Shown piece after piece: positions 11,858 to 41,020 of a DNA stretch of 53,025 nt. The notes beneath the pieces were generated by a model that worked only from the letters and a program-made list of their open reading frames with translations, was not told the DNA's origin and made no database searches. The stretch is taken from positions 1 through 53,025 of the forward strand of contig CALRGX010000007.1 of assembly GCA_943358385.1 (NCBI GenBank), written 5' to 3'. The translations under genes and the position numbers were made by a program. The number at the start of each line of letters is the position of its first letter. The first letter of the stretch is position 1. This DNA comes from Parcubacteria group bacterium (lineage in GTDB: Bacteria > Patescibacteriota > Minisyncoccia > Phycocordibacterales > UBA2100).

Positions 11858-12886
11858 ATGATCTCGTTTTCCCCACGTGCCGTGACGAAAGAGCTTCTTG
11901 CAACGCTCCCCGAGCGTTCCCGCGCCGTGCTGGTAGGACGTTTCGGATTGGACAAAGTAGGGGAATCTAAGACCCTTGAAGCGATTGGCGCACAGTACGG
12001 CATCACCCGCGAGCGCGTACGCCAGATTGAAAACCACGGCATCGCCGCTATCCGTGGATCCGACGCCTACCGTGCCTATGAAGCAGCACTTGAAGAGCTC
12101 CGTAAAGCTTTTGAAAAATTGGGCAGCATCATTACAGAAGACCAGGCACTTACAGAAATTCCAAAAGGGAAGGCAGATAAAAACTTTGTGCAATTTTTGA
12201 TGGTGGTAGGTGACCCATTCACCGTACTGCGCGAAGACGACTCGTTTAACCGCCGCTGGCACACCGACGACGACCTTTCAGGCAAAGTGCACGAAGCGCT
12301 TGAGGCACTCCACGATGCAGTTGACCCAGAACACTTGGTACCAGAGGAAGAATTCTTCAACCGTTTTAATTCATGTCTCGTTCAGTCTGGCGTGAAGAAA
12401 CCTCAAAACAAGGATGCCATGACTCGCTGGCTTGCGCTTTCTAAGAAGGTAGCACGCAACCCACTCGGAGAATGGGGCAAGGCTGACTCACCTCATGTTC
12501 GTGTAAAATCAATGCGCGATTACGCATACCTGACCCTCAAGCGCCACGGTTCACCGATGCACTTCACCGAGGTAGCACAGGGTATTGAAAAGCTTTTCAA
12601 AAAGAAGGCACATCCTGCAACCACGCACAACGAACTCATCAAAGACAAGCGCTTTGTCCTCGTCGGTCGCGGTCTCTACGCTCTAAAAGAGTGGGGCTAC
12701 GAAGTAGGTGTTGTACGTGATGTTATTGAAAACATCTTGCAGCGTGAAGGAAAGCCACTGACCCGCGAAGAAATCATCGAGCGCGTAAAGCGCGAGCGAT
12801 ACGTCAAAGATGCAACTATCATTGTGAATCTGCAAGACGGAGCTTTCAAACGAACACCAGACGGCAAGTACGCTCTCTCAAAATAA
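11858..12886 (+). CDS. sigma70 region-4 HTH fused to HARE-HTH/RNAP-delta-like winged helices
   Basis: TLEAIGAQYGITRERVRQIE (sigma r4.2) at the N-terminus; AYLTLKRHGSPMHFTEVA...FVLVGRGLYALKEW (HARE-HTH-like) plus a second wHTH at the C-terminus; no sigma region 2. Confidence 0.8.
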   Translation: MISFSPRAVTKELLATLPERSRAVLVGRFGLDKVGESKTLEAIGAQYGITRERVRQIENHGIAAIRGSDAYRAYEAALEELRKAFEKLGSIITEDQALTEIPKGKADKNFVQFLMVVGDPFTVLREDDSFNRRWHTDDDLSGKVHEALEALHDAVDPEHLVPEEEFFNRFNSCLVQSGVKKPQNKDAMTRWLALSKKVARNPLGEWGKADSPHVRVKSMRDYAYLTLKRHGSPMHFTEVAQGIEKLFKKKAHPATTHNELIKDKRFVLVGRGLYALKEWGYEVGVVRDVIENILQREGKPLTREEIIERVKRERYVKDATIIVNLQDGAFKRTPDGKYALSK

Positions 12887-16845: not shown

Positions 16846-17724
16846 ATGCCGTCGATTCTTATAACTAAAGCTGACGGGGAGCAGGAGCCATTTGATCTGA
16901 ACAAACTTCGCGAATCTCTGCTGCGAGCGGGCGTACCTGAAGGACAAGAGGACCATGTCATGACGCACGTCTTGAAGGAAATCCGCGATGGTATGACGAC
17001 CAGTGCGATCTATCGACATGTGTTTGAATACCTGCACAAAAGCTTCGAAGCACCAATTGCTGCACGCTACTCGGTAAAGCGCGCAGTGTTTGACTTGGGT
17101 CCTTCTGGATACCCATTCGAACAATTCGTGGCTGCCATTCTACGTATGCAAGGATACAGTGCACGCACCGGACTTGCGCTCACGGGCAAGTGCGCACCCC
17201 ATGAAGTCGACGTACTTGCCGAAAAAGCAGGTCATAAAATCGGCATCGAGGTCAAATTCCACAACACGCCAGGGGTAAAAACTGATTTGAAGGACGCACT
17301 CTATGTGCACGCGCGATTCGAAGACTTAAAAGCAGCACCTGAAGAAACTTCGCGAGTCGATGAAGGATGGCTGGTGACGAATACACGTTTTACTCGCAAT
17401 GCCATTCGCTACGGGCGTTGTGCAGGCCTCACGATGGTTGGTTGGGACTACCCGCGTGGTCACGGCATCCTTTCCTTGATTGCAGAAATGGGCATTCATC
17501 CGGTGACCTGCCTCACGACACTCAGCCAAAATGAAAAACGCCATCTTCTTGATAAAAATATTGTACTGTGTAAGACGATTCGCGAGGACCATGCGCTTTT
17601 AGGCTCCATGGGTATTAGCGGACAGCACGCAAAAGACGTTCTGGGCGAAGCAAACCAGCTCTGCACCCCCGTAGGCACCCCGCTTGCTCCTTTTGACAGT
17701 CGAACAACTCTCGCGCATCATTAA
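16846..17724 (+). CDS. ATP-cone domain fused to an Mrr-like PD-(D/E)xK endonuclease domain
   Basis: ITKADGEQEPFDLNKL (ATP cone); FEQFVAAIL...HEVDVLA...IEVKFH (Mrr_cat-like). Confidence 0.8.
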   Translation: MPSILITKADGEQEPFDLNKLRESLLRAGVPEGQEDHVMTHVLKEIRDGMTTSAIYRHVFEYLHKSFEAPIAARYSVKRAVFDLGPSGYPFEQFVAAILRMQGYSARTGLALTGKCAPHEVDVLAEKAGHKIGIEVKFHNTPGVKTDLKDALYVHARFEDLKAAPEETSRVDEGWLVTNTRFTRNAIRYGRCAGLTMVGWDYPRGHGILSLIAEMGIHPVTCLTTLSQNEKRHLLDKNIVLCKTIREDHALLGSMGISGQHAKDVLGEANQLCTPVGTPLAPFDSRTTLAHH

Positions 17725-18769: not shown

Positions 18770-19576
18770 ATGAGCCAATTCTACAAACCCGACCGCAACG
18801 CAAAATGGAACTATGGCGGCCCCAATTGGCGCCTCTCTCGCTCGAAAATCGACCTCTTTATTGAATGCCCACGCTGTTTCTATATCGACAATGTCCTCGG
18901 GACCGCGCGCCCACCTGGTTTTCCCTTCAACTTGAACAGTGCCGTGGACGCTCTTTTTAAAAAAGAATTTGATATTCATCGGCACGCAAAATCCTCACAT
19001 CCGATAATGAAGCAGTATGGCGTGGATGCGGTTCCATTCCAGCACGAACAGATGGATGTGTGGCGTGAAAATTTCAAGGGCATCCAATACAAACACGAAG
19101 GAACTGGTTTTACTATTTCTGGTGCTGTTGATGACGTGTGGGTCAACCCGCAAGGGGAATTACTCGTAGTTGACTACAAGTCAACCAGCAAAGACGAAAA
19201 GATTGAGGCGCTCGATCAAGACTGGCATGCGGGGTACAAACGCCAAATGGCTGTGTATCAGTGGCTGTTACGCCAAAACGGTTTTACCGTTTCGGATACA
19301 GGATACTTTGTGTATGCCAATGCAAGTAAAGATCGCGAGGCCTTTGATGGCGTCTTAGAATTTGAGGTCACCCTGATTGCACATAAAGGCAACACTGACT
19401 GGATAGAACCCGCCCTCCTTAACATCAAGGCATGTGTTGAGAGCGACCTCATCCCACCAACAGGAGAGACATGCGACTACTGTACCTACCGAGAGTTTGC
19501 GGGGCAAAAGCTTAAAAAACGCCATCTGGAACTGAAGGAAAAAGGGCTGCTTCCTCCCAAAAAAGATCTGGCCTAA
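18770..19576 (+). CDS. PD-(D/E)xK nuclease superfamily protein (RecB/AddB/Cas4-like)
   Basis: LSRSKIDLFIECPRCFY, GAVDD, VVDYKST, QMAVY, CDYC. Confidence 0.85.
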   Translation: MSQFYKPDRNAKWNYGGPNWRLSRSKIDLFIECPRCFYIDNVLGTARPPGFPFNLNSAVDALFKKEFDIHRHAKSSHPIMKQYGVDAVPFQHEQMDVWRENFKGIQYKHEGTGFTISGAVDDVWVNPQGELLVVDYKSTSKDEKIEALDQDWHAGYKRQMAVYQWLLRQNGFTVSDTGYFVYANASKDREAFDGVLEFEVTLIAHKGNTDWIEPALLNIKACVESDLIPPTGETCDYCTYREFAGQKLKKRHLELKEKGLLPPKKDLA

Positions 19577-31672: not shown

Positions 31673-33538
31673 ATGGCAAAAATATTGGGCATTGACCTCG
31701 GTACAACTAATTCTGCGATGGCAATCGTGGAGACGGGCGACGCACGCATCATCGAGAATGCGGAAGGCGCGCGCACCACACCTTCCATCGTAGCAATTTC
31801 AAAAACAGGCGAGCGCCTCGTGGGCGTTACGGCCAAACGCCAGTCGGTAACAAACCCAAAAAACACCATCTACGGCATCAAGCGCTTCATGGGACACCGC
31901 TTCCAAGAAGACGCCGTACAGAAAGACAAAGTCATCGTGCCGTATGAAGTAAAAAGTGGCCCTGATGGCGGTGTCGAAGTTGCCCTGCAAGGCAAAAGCT
32001 ACCGTCCAGAAGAAGTGTCTGCCATGATTTTGGCGAAACTGAAAGCTGATGCTGAAGCAAAATTAGGGGAGAGCATTACCGAGGCAGTTATCACCGTGCC
32101 TGCGTACTTCAACGACGCACAGCGTCAAGCCACCAAAGATGCTGGCAAGATTGCAGGGCTGGATGTAAAACGCATCATCAACGAACCGACGGCAGCGGCT
32201 CTTGCCTACGGATTCAACAAGAATAAGAACGAAAAGATTGCAGTCTTCGACTTTGGAGGTGGAACTTTTGACATATCAATTCTGGAGGTGACTACGAGTG
32301 ATGGAGAAGGATCTATCGAAGTGAAGTCGACCGACGGCGACGCGCACATGGGCGGACGAGACATTGACCAAAAAATTATTCAATGGATGATTGCTGAATT
32401 CAAGCGCGAGGCCGGCATCGACATTGGGAAAGACGCACTTGCTCTTCAGCGCCTGGACGAAGCGGCAGAGAAGGCAAAAATAGAGCTTTCCACCACGACT
32501 GACAGCGAAATAAACATCCCATTCATCACCTCTGATCAGGATGGACCAAAGCACCTCCTCCTAAAACTTTCCCGCGCTAAGCTTGAAGAACTGGCGAGCG
32601 AATATGTCGAGCGATCCATCACGATTACCAAGCGCGCACTCGAAGCGTCACCATTCAAGGCAGGGGAGATCGACGAAATTGTGCTCGTGGGAGGACAAAC
32701 ACGCATGCCTATCATCATGGCGAAAGTGAAAGAATTGTTTGGAAAAGAGCCAAACAAATCCATCAATCCCGATGAAGTCGTGGCGCTCGGTGCTGCTATT
32801 CAAGGCGGTATCATGCAGGGAGATGTGAAGGACGTTCTTTTGTTGGACGTGATCCCACTTTCTCTCGGTATTGAAACGATGGGTGGAGTGGCGACCAAGC
32901 TGATTGAGCGTAACACCACTATTCCCACCAGTCGCTCGCAAGTTTTCTCAACCGCAGCAGATAATCAAACATCCGTCGAGATTCACGTAGTGCAGGGTGA
33001 ACGAAATATGGCAACCGATAACAAATCACTCGGCCGCTTTATCCTTGATGGTATCGCCCCCTCACAGCGTGGCTTGCCGCAGATCGAAGTGACCTTCGAC
33101 ATTGATGCAAATGGCATCCTACAGGTAAAAGCAAAAGATAAAGGCACCAACAAAGAGCAGACCATTCGCATCGAGGCGCGCTCAGGACTCACTGAGGACG
33201 ACATCAAAAAGATGCAAAAAGACGCCGAGCTACATGCCGACGAAGATCTTAAAAAGAAGGAGCTTGCGGAGGCCAAAAACCTTGCAGAACAGCTCATCTA
33301 CACAGCAGAAAAATCAGCTAAAGAACATGATGCAAAGCTCGATCAGGAACTCAAGGACCTCCTCCAGACAAACATTGCCTCATTGAAGGCAACACGTGAC
33401 ACCAATGACGCTGTTGCGATTAAAGCCGCGACTGAAACGCTCTCAACCAATCTCCAAAAAATTGGGGAGGCAGTCTCGAAATCTAACAGCACGCCACCTC
33501 CTACCGAAACACCCGATCAGCCTGCGGAAACGGCATAA
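31673..33538 (+). CDS. dnaK: chaperone DnaK
   Basis: [36 protein letters not shown]. Confidence 0.99.
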
Positions 33539-33577: not shown

Positions 33578-33604
33578 TAAGACGAAAAAAACTATACTAC
33601 CCGC

Positions 33605-34657
33605 ATGAAGGATTACTACTCCATATTGGGCATCACCAAAAGCGCCACAGAGGACGACGTAAAAAAAGCATTCCGCAAACTCGCGCATAAGTATCACCCC
33701 GACAAGAAGGGTGGCGATGAAGCTAAGTTCAAAGAAATTAGTGAGGCTTACACCGTGCTTTCTGATAAAAAGAAACGCGCAGAATACGATGCTTACGGTC
33801 GCACGTTCCAGCAAGGCACAGGTCCGGGGCCTGGTGGATTTGACAACTCGGGGTTCGGCGGGTTTGAAGGCTTCCAAGACTTTGACTTTGGCGATATCTT
33901 CTCCGAGTTCTTTGGCAATCGTGGTGCCGCACCAAAGCGCGGGCGTGATATATCAATTGATCTAGAACTTACGTTCAAAGATTCCGTCTTTGGCGTTGAA
34001 CGTCGTGTACTACTCACCAAACTGGGAATTTGTGACGCGTGTACGGGCTCTGGCGCAAAGCCAGGCAGTTCGGTTGAGACCTGTGGCGGCTGCGGAGGGC
34101 AAGGGAGTGTCCGCGAAGCTCGCTCAACAGTCTTTGGTTCTTTCACTACCACGCGCGAATGTCCACAGTGCAAAGGGCGTGGAACGATTCCAAAAGAAAC
34201 GTGCCGCACCTGTGCAGGACGCGGCGTGGCTCGCCAGCAAGACGAAGTAAAAATCTCCGTACCTGCGGGAATCAACAACGGCGAAATGATTCGCATGCCC
34301 GGACGTGGCGAAGCAGTTGCCGCTGGTTCGCCAGGAGATTTGTACATAAAGATTCACGTGAAGACTGATCCACGTTTCAAGCGAGAGGGGAACCTTCTCT
34401 CAACCACTATCGCCATTAAACTGAGCGATGCACTCTTAGGCGCTACGTACGACGTTGAAACACTCGATGGCACGGTGCCTCTTTCGATTCCCGCTGGAGT
34501 GAGCCATGGCGAAACGCTGCGCATTAAAGGGAAAGGGGTACCGCTCCCTAAAAATGAGCGTGGTGATTTTATGGTGCGCCTCACCATTTCACTGCCATCA
34601 AAACTATCCAAGAAGGCACGAACACTCGTTGAGGATTTGCGCATCGAAGGGTTATAA
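33605..34657 (+). CDS. dnaJ: chaperone DnaJ
   Basis: J domain with HPD, G/F region, four CxxCxGxG repeats. Confidence 0.98.
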   Translation: MKDYYSILGITKSATEDDVKKAFRKLAHKYHPDKKGGDEAKFKEISEAYTVLSDKKKRAEYDAYGRTFQQGTGPGPGGFDNSGFGGFEGFQDFDFGDIFSEFFGNRGAAPKRGRDISIDLELTFKDSVFGVERRVLLTKLGICDACTGSGAKPGSSVETCGGCGGQGSVREARSTVFGSFTTTRECPQCKGRGTIPKETCRTCAGRGVARQQDEVKISVPAGINNGEMIRMPGRGEAVAAGSPGDLYIKIHVKTDPRFKREGNLLSTTIAIKLSDALLGATYDVETLDGTVPLSIPAGVSHGETLRIKGKGVPLPKNERGDFMVRLTISLPSKLSKKARTLVEDLRIEGL

Positions 34658-34664
34658 TTACCAC

Positions 34665-35150
34665 ATGAACCTCGATGCTATTTTTGCACTCGTGAGTGTT
34701 GATATCATCATCCTGCTCTGTGTCGCTGTCGTCTTAGCACTGGTTGCCTTGCGTCTCAATGTAGTCATTCCCGCAACACTGGTGCTGTCCCTATTTCTGG
34801 CAAACACTTTGCAGCCACTCCTCAACGGCACCGCTTTTATAGGGGGCATGTTTACTACATCTTCGCCGCTCATTGCTTTCTGCGTACTCTTCACGCTTTT
34901 GGCAATTCTTTTCTTTCGATTGCTCACGCGTCATATGCGCGAAGAGGCCACGCTTACGGGTGCACTACTCTCCGGAGCAGCGGGTACTGTCGGCATATTT
35001 GCAGCATGGGTACAAACACCGCTCTTGCACTCGCTGCATACCTTTAACGCACCCCTCACTGCCTGGTTTACCGCAGGAACGCTCTTGTTATGGATTTTTG
35101 GTAGTCTTATAGCGCTCGGTTTTGCGCAACGGCAATCGCGTTGGATATGA
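34665..35150 (+). CDS. hypothetical polytopic membrane protein
   Basis: Start reassigned to MNLDAIF (TATAAT 6 nt upstream); about 5 TM helices; ATGA overlap with the next gene. Confidence 0.7.
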   Translation: MNLDAIFALVSVDIIILLCVAVVLALVALRLNVVIPATLVLSLFLANTLQPLLNGTAFIGGMFTTSSPLIAFCVLFTLLAILFFRLLTRHMREEATLTGALLSGAAGTVGIFAAWVQTPLLHSLHTFNAPLTAWFTAGTLLLWIFGSLIALGFAQRQSRWI

Positions 35151-35884
35151 GTGACGCGATTGCCATAGCGAATCGGCCAAGTCCTGCCGTTTCCACTGGG
35201 AGTGCGTGGCTATGGCAAGTCATAAAAATGCTCCCCTATGTTTGGCAAAGTGGCACATGGCTCTTGGGCTATGTGCTGCTTCGTTTTTTCGGGCGCTTCA
35301 CCGTCTCGGGCATAGAAAACATTCCTTATTCACAGAAAGGAGGACTCATCTTGGCGGCAAATCACGACAGCGACCTTGATGGCGTTATGCTCTTGGCAGG
35401 ATTTGCGCCATTTTCAAGGCACTTCCCACTATATTACGTCGCAAAGTCGCGCGGCGACTACGCATGGGATGATTCATTAAGGAAGCTCATTTACCGCTCG
35501 TGGTTCTTCTGGTTGATTGGTGCATTTCCTGTGGTGACCAAAGCACGAGATTACGCACTTTCACTCGCACTGCATGAGCGGCTTTTACACGATGGACATA
35601 CGGTCGCCATTTTCCCTGAAGGGTCCTTCCACAAGAAAACCACCGAGCTCAAAGCCCGAGGTGGTGTGGTGTACTTGTCTGAGCAAACCAAGTGCCCCAT
35701 CATTCCCGTACGCATCACCGGCACCGATGACATCTCGATTGCATCATTCCTTTTGCGCAAACACACCCTGCATGTACACTATGATGTGCCCAAAACCAGC
35801 GCGCAACTTTTAGAAGGGGATCTCGGCCCTGACCGATACAAGCATGCAGCACTGGCGCTGATGAAGCATATCTATTCACTCTAG
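35147..35884 (+). CDS. PlsC-type (lysophospholipid) acyltransferase
   Basis: LILAANHDSDLD (HxxxxD), VAKS, IGAFPV, VAIFPEG, PIIPV. Confidence 0.9.
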   Translation: MSDAIAIANRPSPAVSTGSAWLWQVIKMLPYVWQSGTWLLGYVLLRFFGRFTVSGIENIPYSQKGGLILAANHDSDLDGVMLLAGFAPFSRHFPLYYVAKSRGDYAWDDSLRKLIYRSWFFWLIGAFPVVTKARDYALSLALHERLLHDGHTVAIFPEGSFHKKTTELKARGGVVYLSEQTKCPIIPVRITGTDDISIASFLLRKHTLHVHYDVPKTSAQLLEGDLGPDRYKHAALALMKHIYSL

Positions 35885-35888
35885 AGAT

Positions 35889-37058
35889 ATGCGTATCATG
35901 ACCGAGCTCCACAATATGGCAGCGCTTCTGCGTGATGCGTTGTATCTGGTCCTCCCGTACCGTCTCACGCGCAGTGCTGAGTATCGCTTTGCTTTTTTAG
36001 TGCACCCACGCAGTAGGCGAGACCTCTTCCGGAAAGTGCCGATTCTGAAGCACGTTCCCGCATCGGTCGTATCCTGGTTTGAGTATCATTGGCCTCCGGC
36101 AATTGTCTCTCCCATTACAGGGCTCACTGATGCAGATGGAAACAAAATTGTGGGGTATGTCATTGGTATCCCCATGTCACCCGAAGCAATGCTCCGAGAT
36201 CGTGAACACGCACTTATTCAAATTCGTCACGGCGTACAGCTAGCCAGAGCACACGGCGCACGCATCATCGGACTCGGCGCACTTACCTCATCGCTCTCAA
36301 AAGGCGGACTCGACTTGATAGATATTCCTGATATTGCGATAACAACAGGGCATGCCTTCACGGGTTACACCGTATCGCAAACACTTCTTACTCTGATGTC
36401 CCGTGCAGGCGTGTCACCACACGAAGCTCCTACTGCAGTGGTGGGTGCAGCTGGTTCGATCGGTACCATCAGCGCACATCTTCTTGCCCGCGCTGGCGTG
36501 CGCAACTTTCTTTTCATTGACATAGCTCGAAAGCGCACGAAAGTTGACGAATTGATGAATGAACTGCAACGCCAATACGCTGACTGCACCATGCGCTACA
36601 GTGAGAACATAGCTTCTTTGCGAGAGTGCACATTCATCGTAACTGCAACAAACACACCTGAAGCATTGGTAAAAGCGGAACATGTTTTACCAGGGACCGT
36701 TATTGTGGATGACGCACAACCATCCGACATCGAAGAGGCGCTGTGGAAAAGTGAGAAGGTCCTTGTGGCATCCGCAGGGGCAGTGTTCACGCCGGGCATT
36801 TCATCAAATTTCCCTATGGGTCTCGCAGGCCGTGAAGACAATTACTGTTGTCTCGCAGAAGTGTTAGCGCTCGCCCATGAGAAAAAGGACGAGCACTTTG
36901 TGCTGAATCGTCCTACACTCGACATGGTGGATACCGTAGCGACCATCGCACAGACGTTGCACTTTCGGGTTGCCGACATTCAGGGACCAAGTGGTTACAT
37001 ACCCACAGAGAAGATCGACACAATTCTCAAGGAGGCCAAAAAGCGCTGTACAGTATAG
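35889..37058 (+). CDS. acyl-ACP/CoA reductase-like NAD(P)-binding protein (cyanobacterial AAR / COG5322 family)
   Basis: Motif-by-motif similarity to cyanobacterial AAR: FAFLVH, PPAIVSPIT, GARIIGLGALTS, TTGHAFT, AVVGAAGSIG, VIVDDAQP, YCCLAE (catalytic Cys position). Confidence 0.78.
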   Translation: MRIMTELHNMAALLRDALYLVLPYRLTRSAEYRFAFLVHPRSRRDLFRKVPILKHVPASVVSWFEYHWPPAIVSPITGLTDADGNKIVGYVIGIPMSPEAMLRDREHALIQIRHGVQLARAHGARIIGLGALTSSLSKGGLDLIDIPDIAITTGHAFTGYTVSQTLLTLMSRAGVSPHEAPTAVVGAAGSIGTISAHLLARAGVRNFLFIDIARKRTKVDELMNELQRQYADCTMRYSENIASLRECTFIVTATNTPEALVKAEHVLPGTVIVDDAQPSDIEEALWKSEKVLVASAGAVFTPGISSNFPMGLAGREDNYCCLAEVLALAHEKKDEHFVLNRPTLDMVDTVATIAQTLHFRVADIQGPSGYIPTEKIDTILKEAKKRCTV

Positions 37059-37061
37059 GAG

Positions 37062-38717
37062 ATGGATGCCATAAACATCTTCGTCTTCTTTGCGTCAGCT
37101 CTCTCCCTGATTTTTGGGTTACTCGTCTACGCACGGAATAGGGAACATTCGACCAATAAAGCTTTTCTATGGTTTGCCATTACAGTGGGATCGTGGGCGC
37201 TCTCATTGGGGGTATTTAGAAGTGGTTTCGAAAATCTAGAACTGTACGCACGCCTCTTGTACGTTACCGCAGCGCTAATCGCATTTACGTTTGCCGTGTT
37301 CATGCGCCACTATGAAGCTGAGGATGACCCTTCGTGGTATTGGTACATTCTCGTAGGAATACCTACTGCATGCATTCTTTTCATTGCTGCAATCCCTGGA
37401 CTCTTAGTCATTGACGTTTTGCCGCGCCCCGGACAAGAATCATTCATTGTGCTCAATACGGTGCCTCACATCTTATACTTTGCATACATTGTCATTTCAG
37501 GGTTCGCAGGACTAGGCCTTCTCGCACAGCGCGCGTATCACAACACCCTCGGCGCGCGCAATAAGTACCTCTATATCATGGCAGCAACCGCGGTACCCAC
37601 CTCTGCTGGAGTAGTCTCGAACCTTCTTCTGCCGAGCATGGGGATTTTTGAATATAATTGGGTAGGCCAGGTATCCACCTTCGCCATGGTAACGATAATG
37701 GCGTATGGGATGTTCCGCCAGCAGATTTTCGACGCTCGCGTAATCGCGACTGAACTCCTTTTGTTCCTTCTCTGCAGCATTTCGCTTGGCCGTGTAGTAC
37801 TTTCGCAGTCATTGAATGAGATGTTCTTCAACATTGCTGCGTTCCTCGTCGTGGTAGGAGTGAGCGCGTTACTTTCTCGCAGTGTATATCGTGAAGTACT
37901 GGCCAAGGAGCAGATTGAAAAGCTTGCAAGCAGCTTAAGTGTGGCGAATGAGCATCTGCGCGAGCTCGATCGGCAGAAATCGGAATTTCTCTCTATTGCT
38001 TCACACCAGTTGCGTACTCCACTTGCAGCCATTCGCGGTTATGCGTCTCTCATGATCGAAGGGTCCTACGGCACAATCACCGAAGCCCTCCTCGTCCCCG
38101 CACGCACCATATTTGCCTCAAGCACACGCATGGCAGACACGGTGGAAGATTTCTTGAACGTGTCTCGCATTGAGCAAGGAAAGATGGACTACCGTTTCAA
38201 AACCGAAGATTTGAAGATACTCACCACGCAAGTTGTGACCGAATTGAACATTGCGGCGAAAAACAAGAAGCTGGACCTCACCTACGACGATGATGCCCGT
38301 GGTCCATACATGGTCACCATCGACTCATCAAAAGTACACCATGTAATATCCAACCTGGTAGATAACGCCATCAAATACACTCCGCGCGGCTCGGTGCATG
38401 TACGCATTGAACGCCACCAGAACGAGAGAGAGGTATGTGTACACATTTCAGATACCGGTGCTGGTATTTCCAAAGAAACCATTGGAACTTTGTTCGACAA
38501 ATTCGTCCGTGCACGAAACGCGCAGGACATCAACGTCACCGGAACCGGCCTCGGACTCTACGTTGCCCGCGAGATGCTCAAGGCTCACAAGGGGAGCGTT
38601 ATGGCACAATCCGATGGGGAAGGGAAAGGATCCACCTTTGTCATTTGCCTGCCGCTCTCTGCGCCACAGCCTGCCAAAATGGCCCCCATATCAAGCACTT
38701 CACCGCGCACCCTCTAA
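37062..38717 (+). CDS. sensor histidine kinase with an N-terminal 7TM-type membrane domain
   Basis: About 7-8 TM N-terminus; H-box ASHQLRTPL, N-box NLVDNAIKYT, DTGAGI, LFDKF, GTGLGL. Confidence 0.93.
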   Translation: MDAINIFVFFASALSLIFGLLVYARNREHSTNKAFLWFAITVGSWALSLGVFRSGFENLELYARLLYVTAALIAFTFAVFMRHYEAEDDPSWYWYILVGIPTACILFIAAIPGLLVIDVLPRPGQESFIVLNTVPHILYFAYIVISGFAGLGLLAQRAYHNTLGARNKYLYIMAATAVPTSAGVVSNLLLPSMGIFEYNWVGQVSTFAMVTIMAYGMFRQQIFDARVIATELLLFLLCSISLGRVVLSQSLNEMFFNIAAFLVVVGVSALLSRSVYREVLAKEQIEKLASSLSVANEHLRELDRQKSEFLSIASHQLRTPLAAIRGYASLMIEGSYGTITEALLVPARTIFASSTRMADTVEDFLNVSRIEQGKMDYRFKTEDLKILTTQVVTELNIAAKNKKLDLTYDDDARGPYMVTIDSSKVHHVISNLVDNAIKYTPRGSVHVRIERHQNEREVCVHISDTGAGISKETIGTLFDKFVRARNAQDINVTGTGLGLYVAREMLKAHKGSVMAQSDGEGKGSTFVICLPLSAPQPAKMAPISSTSPRTL

Positions 38718-38735: not shown

Positions 38736-39671
38736 ATGAAGCGATTCTTGACTGGCTTACAGCCTTCCGGGGCATTACATATAGGCAACTATTTTGGAGC
38801 CCTGAAGCCTTTTGTTGACCAATACCGCTCCTATGAAAGCTTCCTGATGGTTGTCGACTACCACGCACTCACCTCGCTCAAAGACCCTGCGGCACTCCGC
38901 GAAAACATCCTGAGTGCCACCAAAGACTACTTGGCGGCGGGAGTCGACCCAGAACAGGTCACACTCTTCCAACAATCTCAGGTGCAAGAGCACACCGAGC
39001 TTGCTTGGATTCTGGAATGTTTGGTGACAGTACCGTTTTTGGAACTCTCACACGCCTACAAAGACAAGTTAGCAAAAGGACTGGAAGCGAACGCAGGACT
39101 CTTTAACTATCCGATGCTCATGGCCGCCGATATTCTTTTGTACGACACCGACATCGTGCCAGTAGGAGCCGACCAACGACAGCACGTCGAATACGCCCGC
39201 GAAGCTGCGGCAAAATTCAACAACACGTACGAACTGCTCTTTAAAGAACCACAGGGCCTGATCCAAGAAACAGTAGCAACGGTGCCAGGGACGGACGGGA
39301 AGAAAATGAGCAAAAGCTATAAGAATACGATTCCTCTCTTTGGTTCACGCGACGACATTGCACAAGCGGTCATGTCTATTGTGACCGACTCGAGCGGGGA
39401 GAGACCAGAGCACGTATACGCAATCCACTCACTTTTCAAAGACGCGCCTGCATTAGATGCACTCTATGAGGTGCATCGCGGTAAATACAAAGCGCTAAAA
39501 GAAGCGCTTATCGAAGATGTCGATGCGCTCGTGGCACCCATGCGCGAGAAGCGAGCCTCCATCAGTGATGCGGACGTCGTGCGCGTACTTGCCGAGGGAA
39601 GTGCCCGTGCAAAAGAAAAGGCTGGTGCAAAAATGCAGGCAGTGCGCAAAGCTATTGGCGTAGTACTATAA
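38736..39671 (+). CDS. trpS: tryptophan--tRNA ligase
   Basis: TGLQPSGALHIGNY, YPMLMAADIL, VPVGADQRQH, KMSKS. Confidence 0.97.
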   Translation: MKRFLTGLQPSGALHIGNYFGALKPFVDQYRSYESFLMVVDYHALTSLKDPAALRENILSATKDYLAAGVDPEQVTLFQQSQVQEHTELAWILECLVTVPFLELSHAYKDKLAKGLEANAGLFNYPMLMAADILLYDTDIVPVGADQRQHVEYAREAAAKFNNTYELLFKEPQGLIQETVATVPGTDGKKMSKSYKNTIPLFGSRDDIAQAVMSIVTDSSGERPEHVYAIHSLFKDAPALDALYEVHRGKYKALKEALIEDVDALVAPMREKRASISDADVVRVLAEGSARAKEKAGAKMQAVRKAIGVVL

Positions 39672-39676
39672 AATAT

Positions 39677-41020
39677 ATGGAAAGAATACTCATTGGTGAA
39701 TTGGGCGCGCACATCGGCAAGAAGGTAACCATTAAAGGTTGGGTGGACGCCCGACGCGACCATGGCAAATTGATTTTCATGGTAGTGCGCGATCGCAGCG
39801 GCATCGTACAAGCAGTCGTCCATGCATCCGCTCAGGAACCTTTTGCTGCGCTTGCTGATGCAAAGGGGGAATGGGTTATTGCATTATCAGGAACCGTCCA
39901 AGAGCGACCAGAAAAAATGCGCACCGCTGGCCAAAATGGCAACCTTGAGCTCTCGATCGAATCTGCACAGATTCTCTCCAGTGCACACCCTCTCCCATTC
40001 GAGCACGATGCAGAGCTCAACATCGACACGTACTTTGACCACCTACCGCTCACTCTGCGCCGTAAGCGTGCGCGCGACATCTTCACGATGGCAGCAACCG
40101 TGGTGCAGGAGTATCGTCATGCGCTTGTTCGCCGCGGATTCACTGAATTCCAAGCACCAGCTCTTGTGGGAGGAGATGCGGAAGGCGGTGCCGCAGTATT
40201 TAAGGTGGGCTACTATCACGATCAAACGGCGTATCTGGCCACATCGCCACAGCTCTACAAGCAGATTATGGTAGGTGCATTTGAGCGGGCATTTACTATT
40301 GCCAAAATATTTCGCGCTGAAAAAAGTGCGACCACACGCCACTTGGCTGAGCTCACTCAAATGGACTTTGAAATGGGATTTGTTGAAGATCACCGAGATG
40401 TTCTCGAAGTACTTGAGGGCGTGGTGCGCGACGTGGTCACCACTGCCTCACAGAAGCACGCAGATATGTTTGCCGCTTTTGGCAGCACCGCACCGCTTTT
40501 GCCTAAGGGGACGTTTCCAACGCTCACGCTTACAGAGGCGCAGGACATTCTAGAAGATGAGTGCGGCGTCAAAGCTCGCGGCGAGCCGGATATGGAGCCG
40601 GAACATGAGCGCAAGATATGCGAATGGGCCAAAGAAAAGCATGGTTCTGATTTTGTATTCATCACCGCATATCCAACCAGCAAGCGCGCTTTCTACACGT
40701 ATGAAGACCCTGTCGAAGCACCATTCTCGCGTGGCTTTGACCTGCTGTTTCGTGGTTTGGAAATCAACAGCGGAGCACAGCGCATTCACAACTACGACGA
40801 CCTGGTCGCGAAAATTAAGGCACGCGGCATGGACCCTGAAAAGTTTGCGTTTTATCTGGAAGCATTTAAGTACGGAATGCCGCCCCACGGAGGGTGTTCT
40901 ACTGGCCTCGAGCGTTTTGTGGCGCGGATGCTTGAGCTGCCAAACGTCAAGGAAGCAACTCCGTTCCCACGCGATATGACACGCATTGATACGCGCCTCT
41001 CTCACCACGAAGAGCAGTAA
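39677..41020 (+). CDS. aspS: aspartate--tRNA(Asp/Asn) ligase, archaeal-type non-discriminating form
   Basis: OB-fold N-terminus, AEGGAAVF, LATSPQLYKQ, FRAEKS, YGMPPHGG; 447 aa without a GAD insert. Confidence 0.88.
   Translation: MERILIGELGAHIGKKVTIKGWVDARRDHGKLIFMVVRDRSGIVQAVVHASAQEPFAALADAKGEWVIALSGTVQERPEKMRTAGQNGNLELSIESAQILSSAHPLPFEHDAELNIDTYFDHLPLTLRRKRARDIFTMAATVVQEYRHALVRRGFTEFQAPALVGGDAEGGAAVFKVGYYHDQTAYLATSPQLYKQIMVGAFERAFTIAKIFRAEKSATTRHLAELTQMDFEMGFVEDHRDVLEVLEGVVRDVVTTASQKHADMFAAFGSTAPLLPKGTFPTLTLTEAQDILEDECGVKARGEPDMEPEHERKICEWAKEKHGSDFVFITAYPTSKRAFYTYEDPVEAPFSRGFDLLFRGLEINSGAQRIHNYDDLVAKIKARGMDPEKFAFYLEAFKYGMPPHGGCSTGLERFVARMLELPNVKEATPFPRDMTRIDTRLSHHEEQ

Follow-up and report, generated by a model that had tools for sequence, protein, structure and literature searches.

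In several described bacterial systems a multi-pass membrane kinase is encoded next to an enzyme whose substrates are fatty-acyl thioesters; these are RpfF/RpfC/RpfG (the DSF system), CqsA/CqsS and PhcB/PhcS. In Bacillus subtilis the DesK/DesR-Des system serves as a membrane-fluidity homeostat, DesK having 5 transmembrane (TM) helices, a HisKA_3-type DHp domain and an adjacent DNA-binding regulator. Here we describe a four-gene block on the forward strand of contig CALRGX010000007.1 (GenBank assembly GCA_943358385.1, a Parcubacteria group bacterium), whose whole analysed stretch of 53,025 nucleotides we call the window. The block encodes a small membrane protein (g1), an acyltransferase (g2), a thioester enzyme related to acyl-ACP reductase (AAR) that we call AARl (g3) and a histidine kinase (g4). 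By profile labelling, about a hundred related genomes have the same acyltransferase-AARl-kinase trio, and we see an even chance that it is a conserved cassette of Patescibacteria coupling two acyl-handling enzymes to a membrane sensor kinase, as a cell-autonomous homeostat of lipid supply or of the membrane. The four genes and the domains of the kinase are as follows.

34665..35150, + strand: g1, small membrane protein of 161 aa with 4-5 predicted TM helices; no family
35147..35884, + strand: g2, PlsC/Aas-type acyltransferase, 245 aa; PF01553; HX4D (HDSDLD) at 35363-35380, FPEG at 35612-35623
35889..37058, + strand: g3 (AARl), NAD(P)-dependent thioester enzyme of the AAR/PigE-N/TAD superfamily, 389 aa; GAAGSIG at 36444-36464, Cys321 codon at 36849-36851
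37062..38717, + strand: g4, orphan sensor histidine kinase, 551 aa; HisKA_7TM + HisKA + HATPase_c
37062-37898, + strand: membrane domain of g4, HisKA_7TM; nine predicted helices
37974-38180, + strand: HisKA domain of g4; phospho-acceptor His315 codon at 38004-38006, in SHQLRTPL
38322-38660, + strand: HATPase_c domain of g4 (Pfam)

The Rpf, Cqs and Phc systems resemble this cassette in the adjacency of enzyme and kinase, and in one locus described below (L112) also in an output through a receiver-HD-GYP protein, as in RpfG, but their enzymes (a crotonase, an AONS and a methyltransferase) and sensors are unrelated to those found here: Pfam/NCBIfam scans detected neither an enzyme of the crotonase, AONS or PhcB type nor a sensor of the CqsS/RpfC type in the cassette, which is moreover core or housekeeping-like rather than accessory. 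DesK shares with g4 a purely transmembrane sensor joined directly to the DHp domain and a functional tie, proposed in the case of g4, to a lipid-modifying enzyme, whereas g4 has nine helices (HisKA_7TM), a DHp domain of the HisKA family (PF00512) and no adjacent regulator. These are the nearest analogues at the level of whole systems, and none of them shares enzyme or sensor families with the cassette. Full-text searches found no paper that joins AAR-type enzymes to the Candidate Phyla Radiation (CPR) or that describes this cassette, and so agree with a preliminary description of this DNA, made from its letters, which knew of no system of such composition.

Taken singly, the parts have better-known relatives. 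Cyanobacterial AAR (EC 1.2.1.80; TIGR04058; 6JZQ/6JZU/6JZY) shares with AARl the two-domain fold, the GxGxxG motif and the catalytic Cys; the two are ~22% identical, and AARl differs in an extra N-terminal helix and in a host without fatty-acid synthesis. AAR hands its hydrophobic product to a dedicated partner, ADO, whereas the constant partners of AARl are a PlsC-type acyltransferase and a 7TM kinase, its neighbours in ~100 loci, and no ADO was found encoded near it. The N-terminal thioester-reductase domain of PigE (4PPM; PMC8341465) is the best sequence match of AARl (128 bits; profile E 2.5e-31) and has the same Cys, but is fused to an aminotransferase and works in the MAP pathway of prodigiosin synthesis, while AARl has neither an aminotransferase nor a biosynthetic gene cluster. 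The TAD of the carmabin nonribosomal peptide synthetase (NRPS; 9E4S-9E56) has, like AARl, an invariant Cys beside NAD (TM-score 0.73); TADs end NRPS modules and probably amidate, in contrast to AARl, which lies beside a kinase and occurs either on its own or as a fusion with PlsC or PilZ, although the TAD study also describes a cluster of stand-alone homologues outside biosynthetic clusters (10.1101/2024.10.28.620694). Pairing or fusion of an HX4D/FPEG acyltransferase with an acyl-activating or acyl-reducing enzyme, as here, occurs in Aas/PlsC and in ElbD. The latter, a myxobacterial protein, unites a reductase and an AGPAT in one polypeptide for ether-lipid synthesis. Aas however has an acyl-ACP synthetase, and ElbD a reductase of the short-chain dehydrogenase/reductase type together with a ligase and ACP, where the cassette has an AAR-type partner and no carrier or ligase that we could see.

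Gene order and gene fusions

We scanned one genome per species for AARl homologues, called open reading frames (ORFs) around them and labelled these with profiles made from the proteins of the window. AARl homologues (29-80% identity) turned up in 80 loci, of which 72 are labelled as or evidently from Patescibacteria (Paceibacterota, Kaiser-, Nomura-, Zambryskii-, Taylor-, Terry-, Portnoy-, Doudnabacteria and others). Counting the CPR loci with at least 300 nt of downstream DNA, the kinase came directly after AARl in 63 of 66 by a strict gap rule, and in 2 more as is evident from the gene-order listing; in the sole real exception a gene for a GMC oxidoreductase separates them. Gaps between AARl and kinase ranged from -50 to +119 nt, with many overlaps of 4-17 nt. 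The kinases also match the membrane domain of g4 (phmmer, residues 1-270 alone), and because that domain is shared they are orthologues and not just any kinase. Linkage held in reverse as well: querying metagenomes with a 7-sequence alignment of the 7TM domain alone yielded 23 loci, and in 20 of the 21 that had upstream DNA AARl was the gene immediately upstream, the remaining locus having a divergent 307-aa Rossmann protein in its position. A word-indexed search with the membrane region of the kinase returned 5 close relatives.

Linkage is independent of the surrounding genes: in 12 of 34 fully flanked loci both the dnaKJ and the trpS/aspS context are gone and the AARl-kinase pair is kept. 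In 39 of 63 loci the gene directly upstream of AARl encodes PlsC; several others have PlsC no more than a few kb away. The cassette is single-copy and near-universal in one large class, where it sits among housekeeping genes (dnaKJ, trpS, aspS), and the window's copy is typical of its kind and in no way special. Outside the CPR, AARl mostly occurs without the kinase; two loci there (L054 and L065) keep PlsC-AARl, and the neighbourhoods in Bipolaricaulota, Trueperaceae and Anaerolineae showed no informative partners.

The co-occurrence that the preliminary description expected of its proposed operon is thus strong for reductase and kinase (63-65 of 66 forward, 20 of 21 in reverse) and for acyltransferase and reductase (39 of 63, besides the fusions below), and loose for g1. 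This protein matched no family in Pfam/NCBIfam scans. At least 11 loci have TM proteins of 150-170 aa resembling it between dnaJ and PlsC, and their link to the g1 of the window is weak, through one locus (L001). Its membership of the operon, as originally claimed, is not conserved across loci, being seen in the dnaJ-PlsC context; judged from these sequences, g1 is a loose, fast-evolving positional neighbour and not a core member of the cassette.

An exhaustive search with AARl of 1.84 billion cluster representatives returned 219 matches at E<=1e-30 and 1278 at E<=1e-10, several of which carry N-terminal extensions. In four representatives (553-650 aa) the extension is an acyltransferase, that is, they are natural PlsC-AARl fusions:

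L107:96-1979, PlsC-AARl fusion
L108:5001-6836, PlsC-AARl fusion
L110:3753-5705, PlsC-AARl fusion
L111:117-1778, PlsC-AARl fusion

One of these fusions is present on 7 contigs from two independent sources, and the gene that follows the fusion begins with a 7TM domain in every such locus. The fusions argue strongly for joint action of the acyltransferase and AARl. Two further representatives are PilZ-AARl fusions, and the locus of one of them (L112:380-6274) encodes, in order, PilZ-PilZ-AARl, a 7TM-GAF kinase and a receiver-HD-GYP protein (HHEHYDGSGYP) of the cyclic di-GMP (c-di-GMP) phosphodiesterase type.

The additional genes found in or beside some cassettes are, by their domain labels, related to lipids:

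L032:757-3078, L035:4938-6983 and L043:830-2878, FadE-type acyl-CoA dehydrogenase (ACDH_C), in or beside the cassette
L070:4402-5673, GMC oxidoreductase, in or beside the cassette
L024:149-856 and L025:598-1338, also L108, alpha/beta-hydrolases, in or beside the cassette
L026:1631-4048, MMPL/RND transporter, in or beside the cassette
L065:5871-13593, LCAT/lipase-like + PKD protein of 1753 aa, after PlsC-AARl without a kinase, on an Acidobacteriota contig

The two enzymes and the kinase

Domain scans agreed with the identities first given to the four products (membrane protein, acyltransferase, reductase-like protein, 7TM kinase). For g2, PF01553 scored 60 bits against a gathering threshold of 23, and the protein has both HX4D and FPEG. 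In NCBIfam it matches best the acyl-ACP--phospholipid O-acyltransferase model (the N-domain of Aas; 52 bits), and with TIGR00530 (1-acyl-glycerol-3-phosphate acyltransferase) it reached 47.6 bits, under the cut-off of 102.95. By these scores g2 is a PF01553 acyltransferase that yet falls under the cut-off of the PlsC subfamily. The catalytic His and Asp of PlsC are kept in 40 of 40 orthologues.

AARl has a Rossmann domain of the Shikimate_DH type and matches the PigE N-domain (128 bits) and the AAR model TIGR04058 (54.4 bits). A profile of 12 AARl sequences found PigE (4PPM), AAR (6JZQ) and the carmabin TAD in the Protein Data Bank. The AlphaFold2 (AF2) model (pLDDT 88.8) has the two-domain AAR fold, and in Foldseek its top match was the carmabin TAD, and AAR matched too (6JZQ/6JZY; TM-score 0.70 normalized to the query and 0.80 to the target, E 1e-17). 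Cys321 aligns with the catalytic Cys294 of AAR, and Cys321, GxGxxG and Glu324 are kept in 75 of 75 orthologues. As to the AAR identity first proposed for g3, superfamily, fold and Cys bear it out and the equivalog assignment does not (54 vs 450 bits): on sequence grounds AARl belongs to the AAR superfamily and lies outside the AAR equivalog family. In AAR and in PigE an acyl group passes from a thioester to the Cys and is then reduced by NAD(P)H to an aldehyde (PMC8341465 for PigE), while for the TAD the chemistry past the acyl-Cys step is undescribed and possibly non-reductive (10.1101/2024.10.28.620694). By analogy, reduction by AARl is likely but not certain. We infer the fatty-acyl substrate and the reductive chemistry, and aldehyde formation with them, at this strength because AARl is far under the AAR cut-off and the superfamily includes TADs of undescribed chemistry.

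The same facts could suit an AARl that acts on a non-fatty thioester or other substrate, such as an amino-acid or polyketide-type intermediate, perhaps in a TAD-like amidation, and that has a non-lipid role. Its closest structural match is after all a TAD, several sources label its family 'predicted amino acid dehydrogenase', and its AAR score is low. The partner genes nevertheless make this unlikely, indeed very improbable in our estimate: the constant partner is a glycerolipid-type acyltransferase, sometimes fused to AARl; the inserted genes encode acyl-CoA dehydrogenase, GMC oxidoreductase, lipase-type hydrolases and an MMPL transporter; and no NRPS, polyketide synthase (PKS) or carrier-protein genes were seen in ~110 loci.

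The kinase is a complete one in its Pfam matches (bits/gathering threshold: HisKA_7TM, PF16927, 46.3/28.6; HisKA, PF00512, 52.1/26.9; HATPase_c, PF02518, 94.2/26.4), and neither the Pfam scan nor the AF2 model placed a PAS or HAMP domain between the membrane domain and the DHp. AF2 modelled residues 1-280 (pLDDT 87) as a bundle of nine helices and a single short beta-hairpin. The only PDB matches of this model in Foldseek, to G-protein-coupled receptors (TM-score 0.45-0.5, rmsd ~7 A), were set aside as reflecting a generic helical bundle and not a relationship. In some kinases of other cassettes a GAF domain separates the membrane domain from HisKA. In the literature HisKA_7TM appears merely as a sensor domain, with no known ligand.

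The His, N, G1 and G2 boxes of the kinase are kept in 57 of 57 orthologues. Glu or Asp is usual after the phospho-acceptor His of HisKA kinases; here the residue is Gln (His315-Gln316, 38004-38009), as in 49 of the 57 orthologues, and the Thr/Asn position at +4 is variable. This HQ box may point to an unusual balance of kinase and phosphatase activities.

A receiver adjoins the cassette in nine other loci, a minority of the lineages, mostly as a CheY-like single-domain protein of 126-135 aa; in one (L069) a receiver protein of 515 aa lies beside it. Placements include the following:

L060:774-1163, L061:5733-6140, L063:5217-5606 and L064:4698-5087, receivers divergent upstream of PlsC
L052:3348-3755, L026:9788-10264 and L100:2523-3732, receivers just after the kinase

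ORFs of 230 aa that follow the kinase in several loci had by their size been candidate response regulators, and were rejected as methyltransferases or products without a family.

What the cassette may sense

We compared divergence within the cassette by Spearman rank correlation of pairwise p-distances across 50 loci; p-distances were used because Kimura-corrected distances saturated and the correction failed. AARl and the 7TM domain of the kinase gave the highest correlation of all pairs on every matched taxon set (0.58-0.78), against -0.09 to 0.24 for AARl and the kinase core, and ~0 for the 7TM domain and its own core. The bootstrap difference between the AARl-7TM and AARl-core correlations was 0.45 (95% interval 0.26-0.66). 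For the other pairs with AARl the values were 0.22-0.56 (trpS), 0-0.27 (aspS), ~0.2 (dnaJ) and 0.15-0.36 (PlsC).

In the homeostat that we favour, the PlsC/Aas-type acyltransferase would esterify a lyso- or glycerol-lipid acceptor, and AARl would load an acyl-thioester on Cys321 and most likely reduce it with NAD(P)H to a fatty aldehyde, from which alcohols, ether lipids or lipids with other modifications could be made; the two enzymes would act jointly, in some lineages as a single polypeptide. The kinase, having no soluble sensor, would read with its nine-helix domain either a hydrophobic compound that AARl makes or uses, or the state of the bilayer as set by the enzymes. It might do so while docked to AARl, in the way that AAR docks to ADO, and would signal through an unlinked (sometimes adjacent, single-domain) receiver that adjusts lipid processing. 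Such a device would serve cells unable to make their own fatty acids; the CPR reportedly retain PlsY and PlsC but have no fatty-acid synthesis, no PlsX and no enzymes that use ACP (PMC7242380). Gene linkage in both directions, fusions, intact catalytic residues, the fold and the co-variation of AARl with the sensor are direct observations, whereas we infer what the kinase senses and in which direction control runs.

The preliminary description had proposed instead that the block makes and senses a signal. On such a reading PlsC and AARl would make a diffusible fatty-acyl-derived molecule (an aldehyde, an alcohol or an acylated compound) that accumulates outside, where the 7TM kinase would detect it and cells could thereby communicate with one another or with the host, by the logic of RpfF/RpfC/RpfG, CqsA/CqsS or PhcB/PhcS. 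An enzyme gene does adjoin a kinase whose sensor is transmembrane only, AARl tracks the sensor domain and not the kinase core, as a synthase-receptor pair would, and FadE-type inserts could yield 2-enoyl species like signals of the DSF family. The locus with the PilZ fusion (L112) has the three-part layout of RpfF-RpfC-RpfG, including the receiver-HD-GYP protein; on paper it plausibly forms a closed loop, from the kinase through the receiver-HD-GYP protein and c-di-GMP to the PilZ domains on AARl itself. The cassette is on the other hand single-copy, near-universal and flanked by housekeeping genes, where signalling cassettes are usually patchy or polymorphic; a glycerolipid-type acyltransferase, often fused to AARl, suits membrane-lipid chemistry better; the active-site and pocket residues of AARl are highly conserved, with no pherotype-like diversification; and no product is known. 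Linkage and the Rpf-like wiring of that locus thus speak for making and sensing, and the single-copy, class-wide housekeeping setting fits at least as well the alternative that the preliminary description also named, kinase-linked lipid remodelling or homeostasis. We regard communication by such a molecule as rather doubtful, and the scavenged host acyl-thioesters of the original proposal, like a diffusible signal, as speculation. The cell-autonomous homeostat is favoured because the setting is single-copy, class-wide and housekeeping, the partner enzyme is of the glycerolipid type and the output of the kinase in the PilZ-fusion locus seems aimed at the enzyme.

A wider proposal, which we advance only tentatively, is that of a hitherto unrecognised lipid-derived signalling unit in Patescibacteria and some other phyla: AARl, by itself or as a fusion with PlsC or PilZ, would convert a host acyl chain into a membrane-soluble ligand of the aldehyde or alcohol type, and the nine-helix domain of the kinase would bind it and so report host lipid supply or neighbours, the output returning in some lineages through receiver-HD-GYP, c-di-GMP and PilZ.

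Linkage could also serve co-expression only, PlsC and AARl carrying out housekeeping lipid salvage while the kinase senses something unrelated (e.g. envelope stress). AARl might then act as a fatty-aldehyde dehydrogenase of the acylating or phosphorylating kind, or carry acyl groups as a Cys-thioester in place of the missing PlsX/ACP steps. Retention of PlsY/PlsC by CPR without PlsX or ACP-dependent enzymes leaves room for such an acyl donor (PMC7242380), and the acyl-Cys intermediate of the AAR superfamily could be resolved by other nucleophiles (10.1101/2024.10.28.620694); further, the best NCBIfam match of g2 is the lysophospholipid acyltransferase domain of Aas, and the two non-CPR loci L054 and L065 keep PlsC-AARl without a kinase. 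Set against this, the near-obligate two-way adjacency of AARl and kinase survives changed flanks, the co-variation of AARl with the sensor and likewise the PilZ/HD-GYP loop are hard to explain without a functional link, and no supply of long-chain aldehyde is evident. We judge salvage with an unrelated kinase to be unlikely.

Several observations weigh against the homeostat itself. The shortfall of AARl from the AAR cut-off, and a closest structural match (the TAD) whose chemistry is possibly non-reductive, bear on its enzyme step. The Gln at His+1 could mean weak autokinase activity, and neither a CheY-seeded profile nor Pfam scans of the ORFs found a receiver domain in the 53-kb window. The layout of the PilZ-fusion locus is equally that of the RpfF/RpfC/RpfG autoinduction loop. 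The 7TM domain correlates moderately with trpS also (0.45-0.56), and the co-variation signal is suggestive, not decisive, as the distances are near saturation and adjacent DNA may share its history. This sequence, finally, is present in DNA runs only and in no RNA run, and because of this the transcript boundaries of the block are predictions.

Setting of the block in the window and wider meaning

The window, a stretch of a small genome, is densely packed with largely co-directional genes, at ~51% G+C. Around the block lie the following:

31673-33538, + strand: dnaK
33605-34657, + strand: dnaJ
34629..34658, + strand: promoter-like TTGAGG-18-TATAAT; TATAAT at 34653-34658 spans the dnaJ stop and ends 6 nt 5' of the g1 ATG
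38736-39671, + strand: trpS
39677-41020, + strand: aspS; scpA and scpB come next

Elsewhere in the same window Pfam labels 16846-17724 as ATP-cone + Mrr_cat, 18770-19576 as PD-(D/E)XK/Cas4-like and 11858-12886 as Sigma70_r4 + HARE-HTH.

The four ORFs of the preliminary description and their junctions were exactly reproduced: g1 and g2 share an ATGA stop/start overlap, g2 and g3 are 4 nt apart ('agat') and g3 and g4 3 nt ('gag'), with 18 nt between g4 and trpS. Public records start g3 at an ATG 9 nt further in, for a product of 386 aa. The TATAAT noted at 34653 before g1 is present as well, and the TTGAGG + TATAAT pair there matches the consensus at 10 of 12 positions with a spacing of 18 nt. 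A promoter scan of the window performed at chance level (8 sites vs 9.2 expected) and was dropped as proof of an operon start in favour of a test for enrichment at -12/-13. In that test 14 of the window's 50 gene starts had a TAnnnT hexamer beginning at -12/-13, where 0.9 would be expected (P ~1e-13), examples being 33593-33598 (dnaJ), 34653-34658 (g1) and 39664-39669 (aspS); leaderless-type starts are therefore a feature of this genome, leaderless transcripts seem to be common in it, and g1 has by its sequence a consensus start of this type. Weaker -10-like hexamers precede g4 (TACAGT at -13), trpS (TAGGAT at -14) and aspS (TACTAT at -13), and the start-codon hexamer test gave none at a fixed distance for g2 and g3. 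Terminator prediction found none at either end of the four-gene block. Sequences resembling Shine-Dalgarno sites are sparse in the window.

Patescibacteria make up a large share of bacterial diversity, live attached to hosts and have no fatty-acid synthesis of their own, and how they acquire, rebuild and monitor lipids is an open question. Sensor kinases are few in these small genomes, and the cassette ties one of them to a pair of enzymes that handle acyl groups; its parts are small and expressible, so that the question is directly testable. If the kinase does read the product of AARl or the state of the membrane, this would be the first ligand class for the HisKA_7TM sensor domain, would give a function to a large unstudied branch of the AAR superfamily and would offer a handle on the host dependence and the cultivation of these bacteria.

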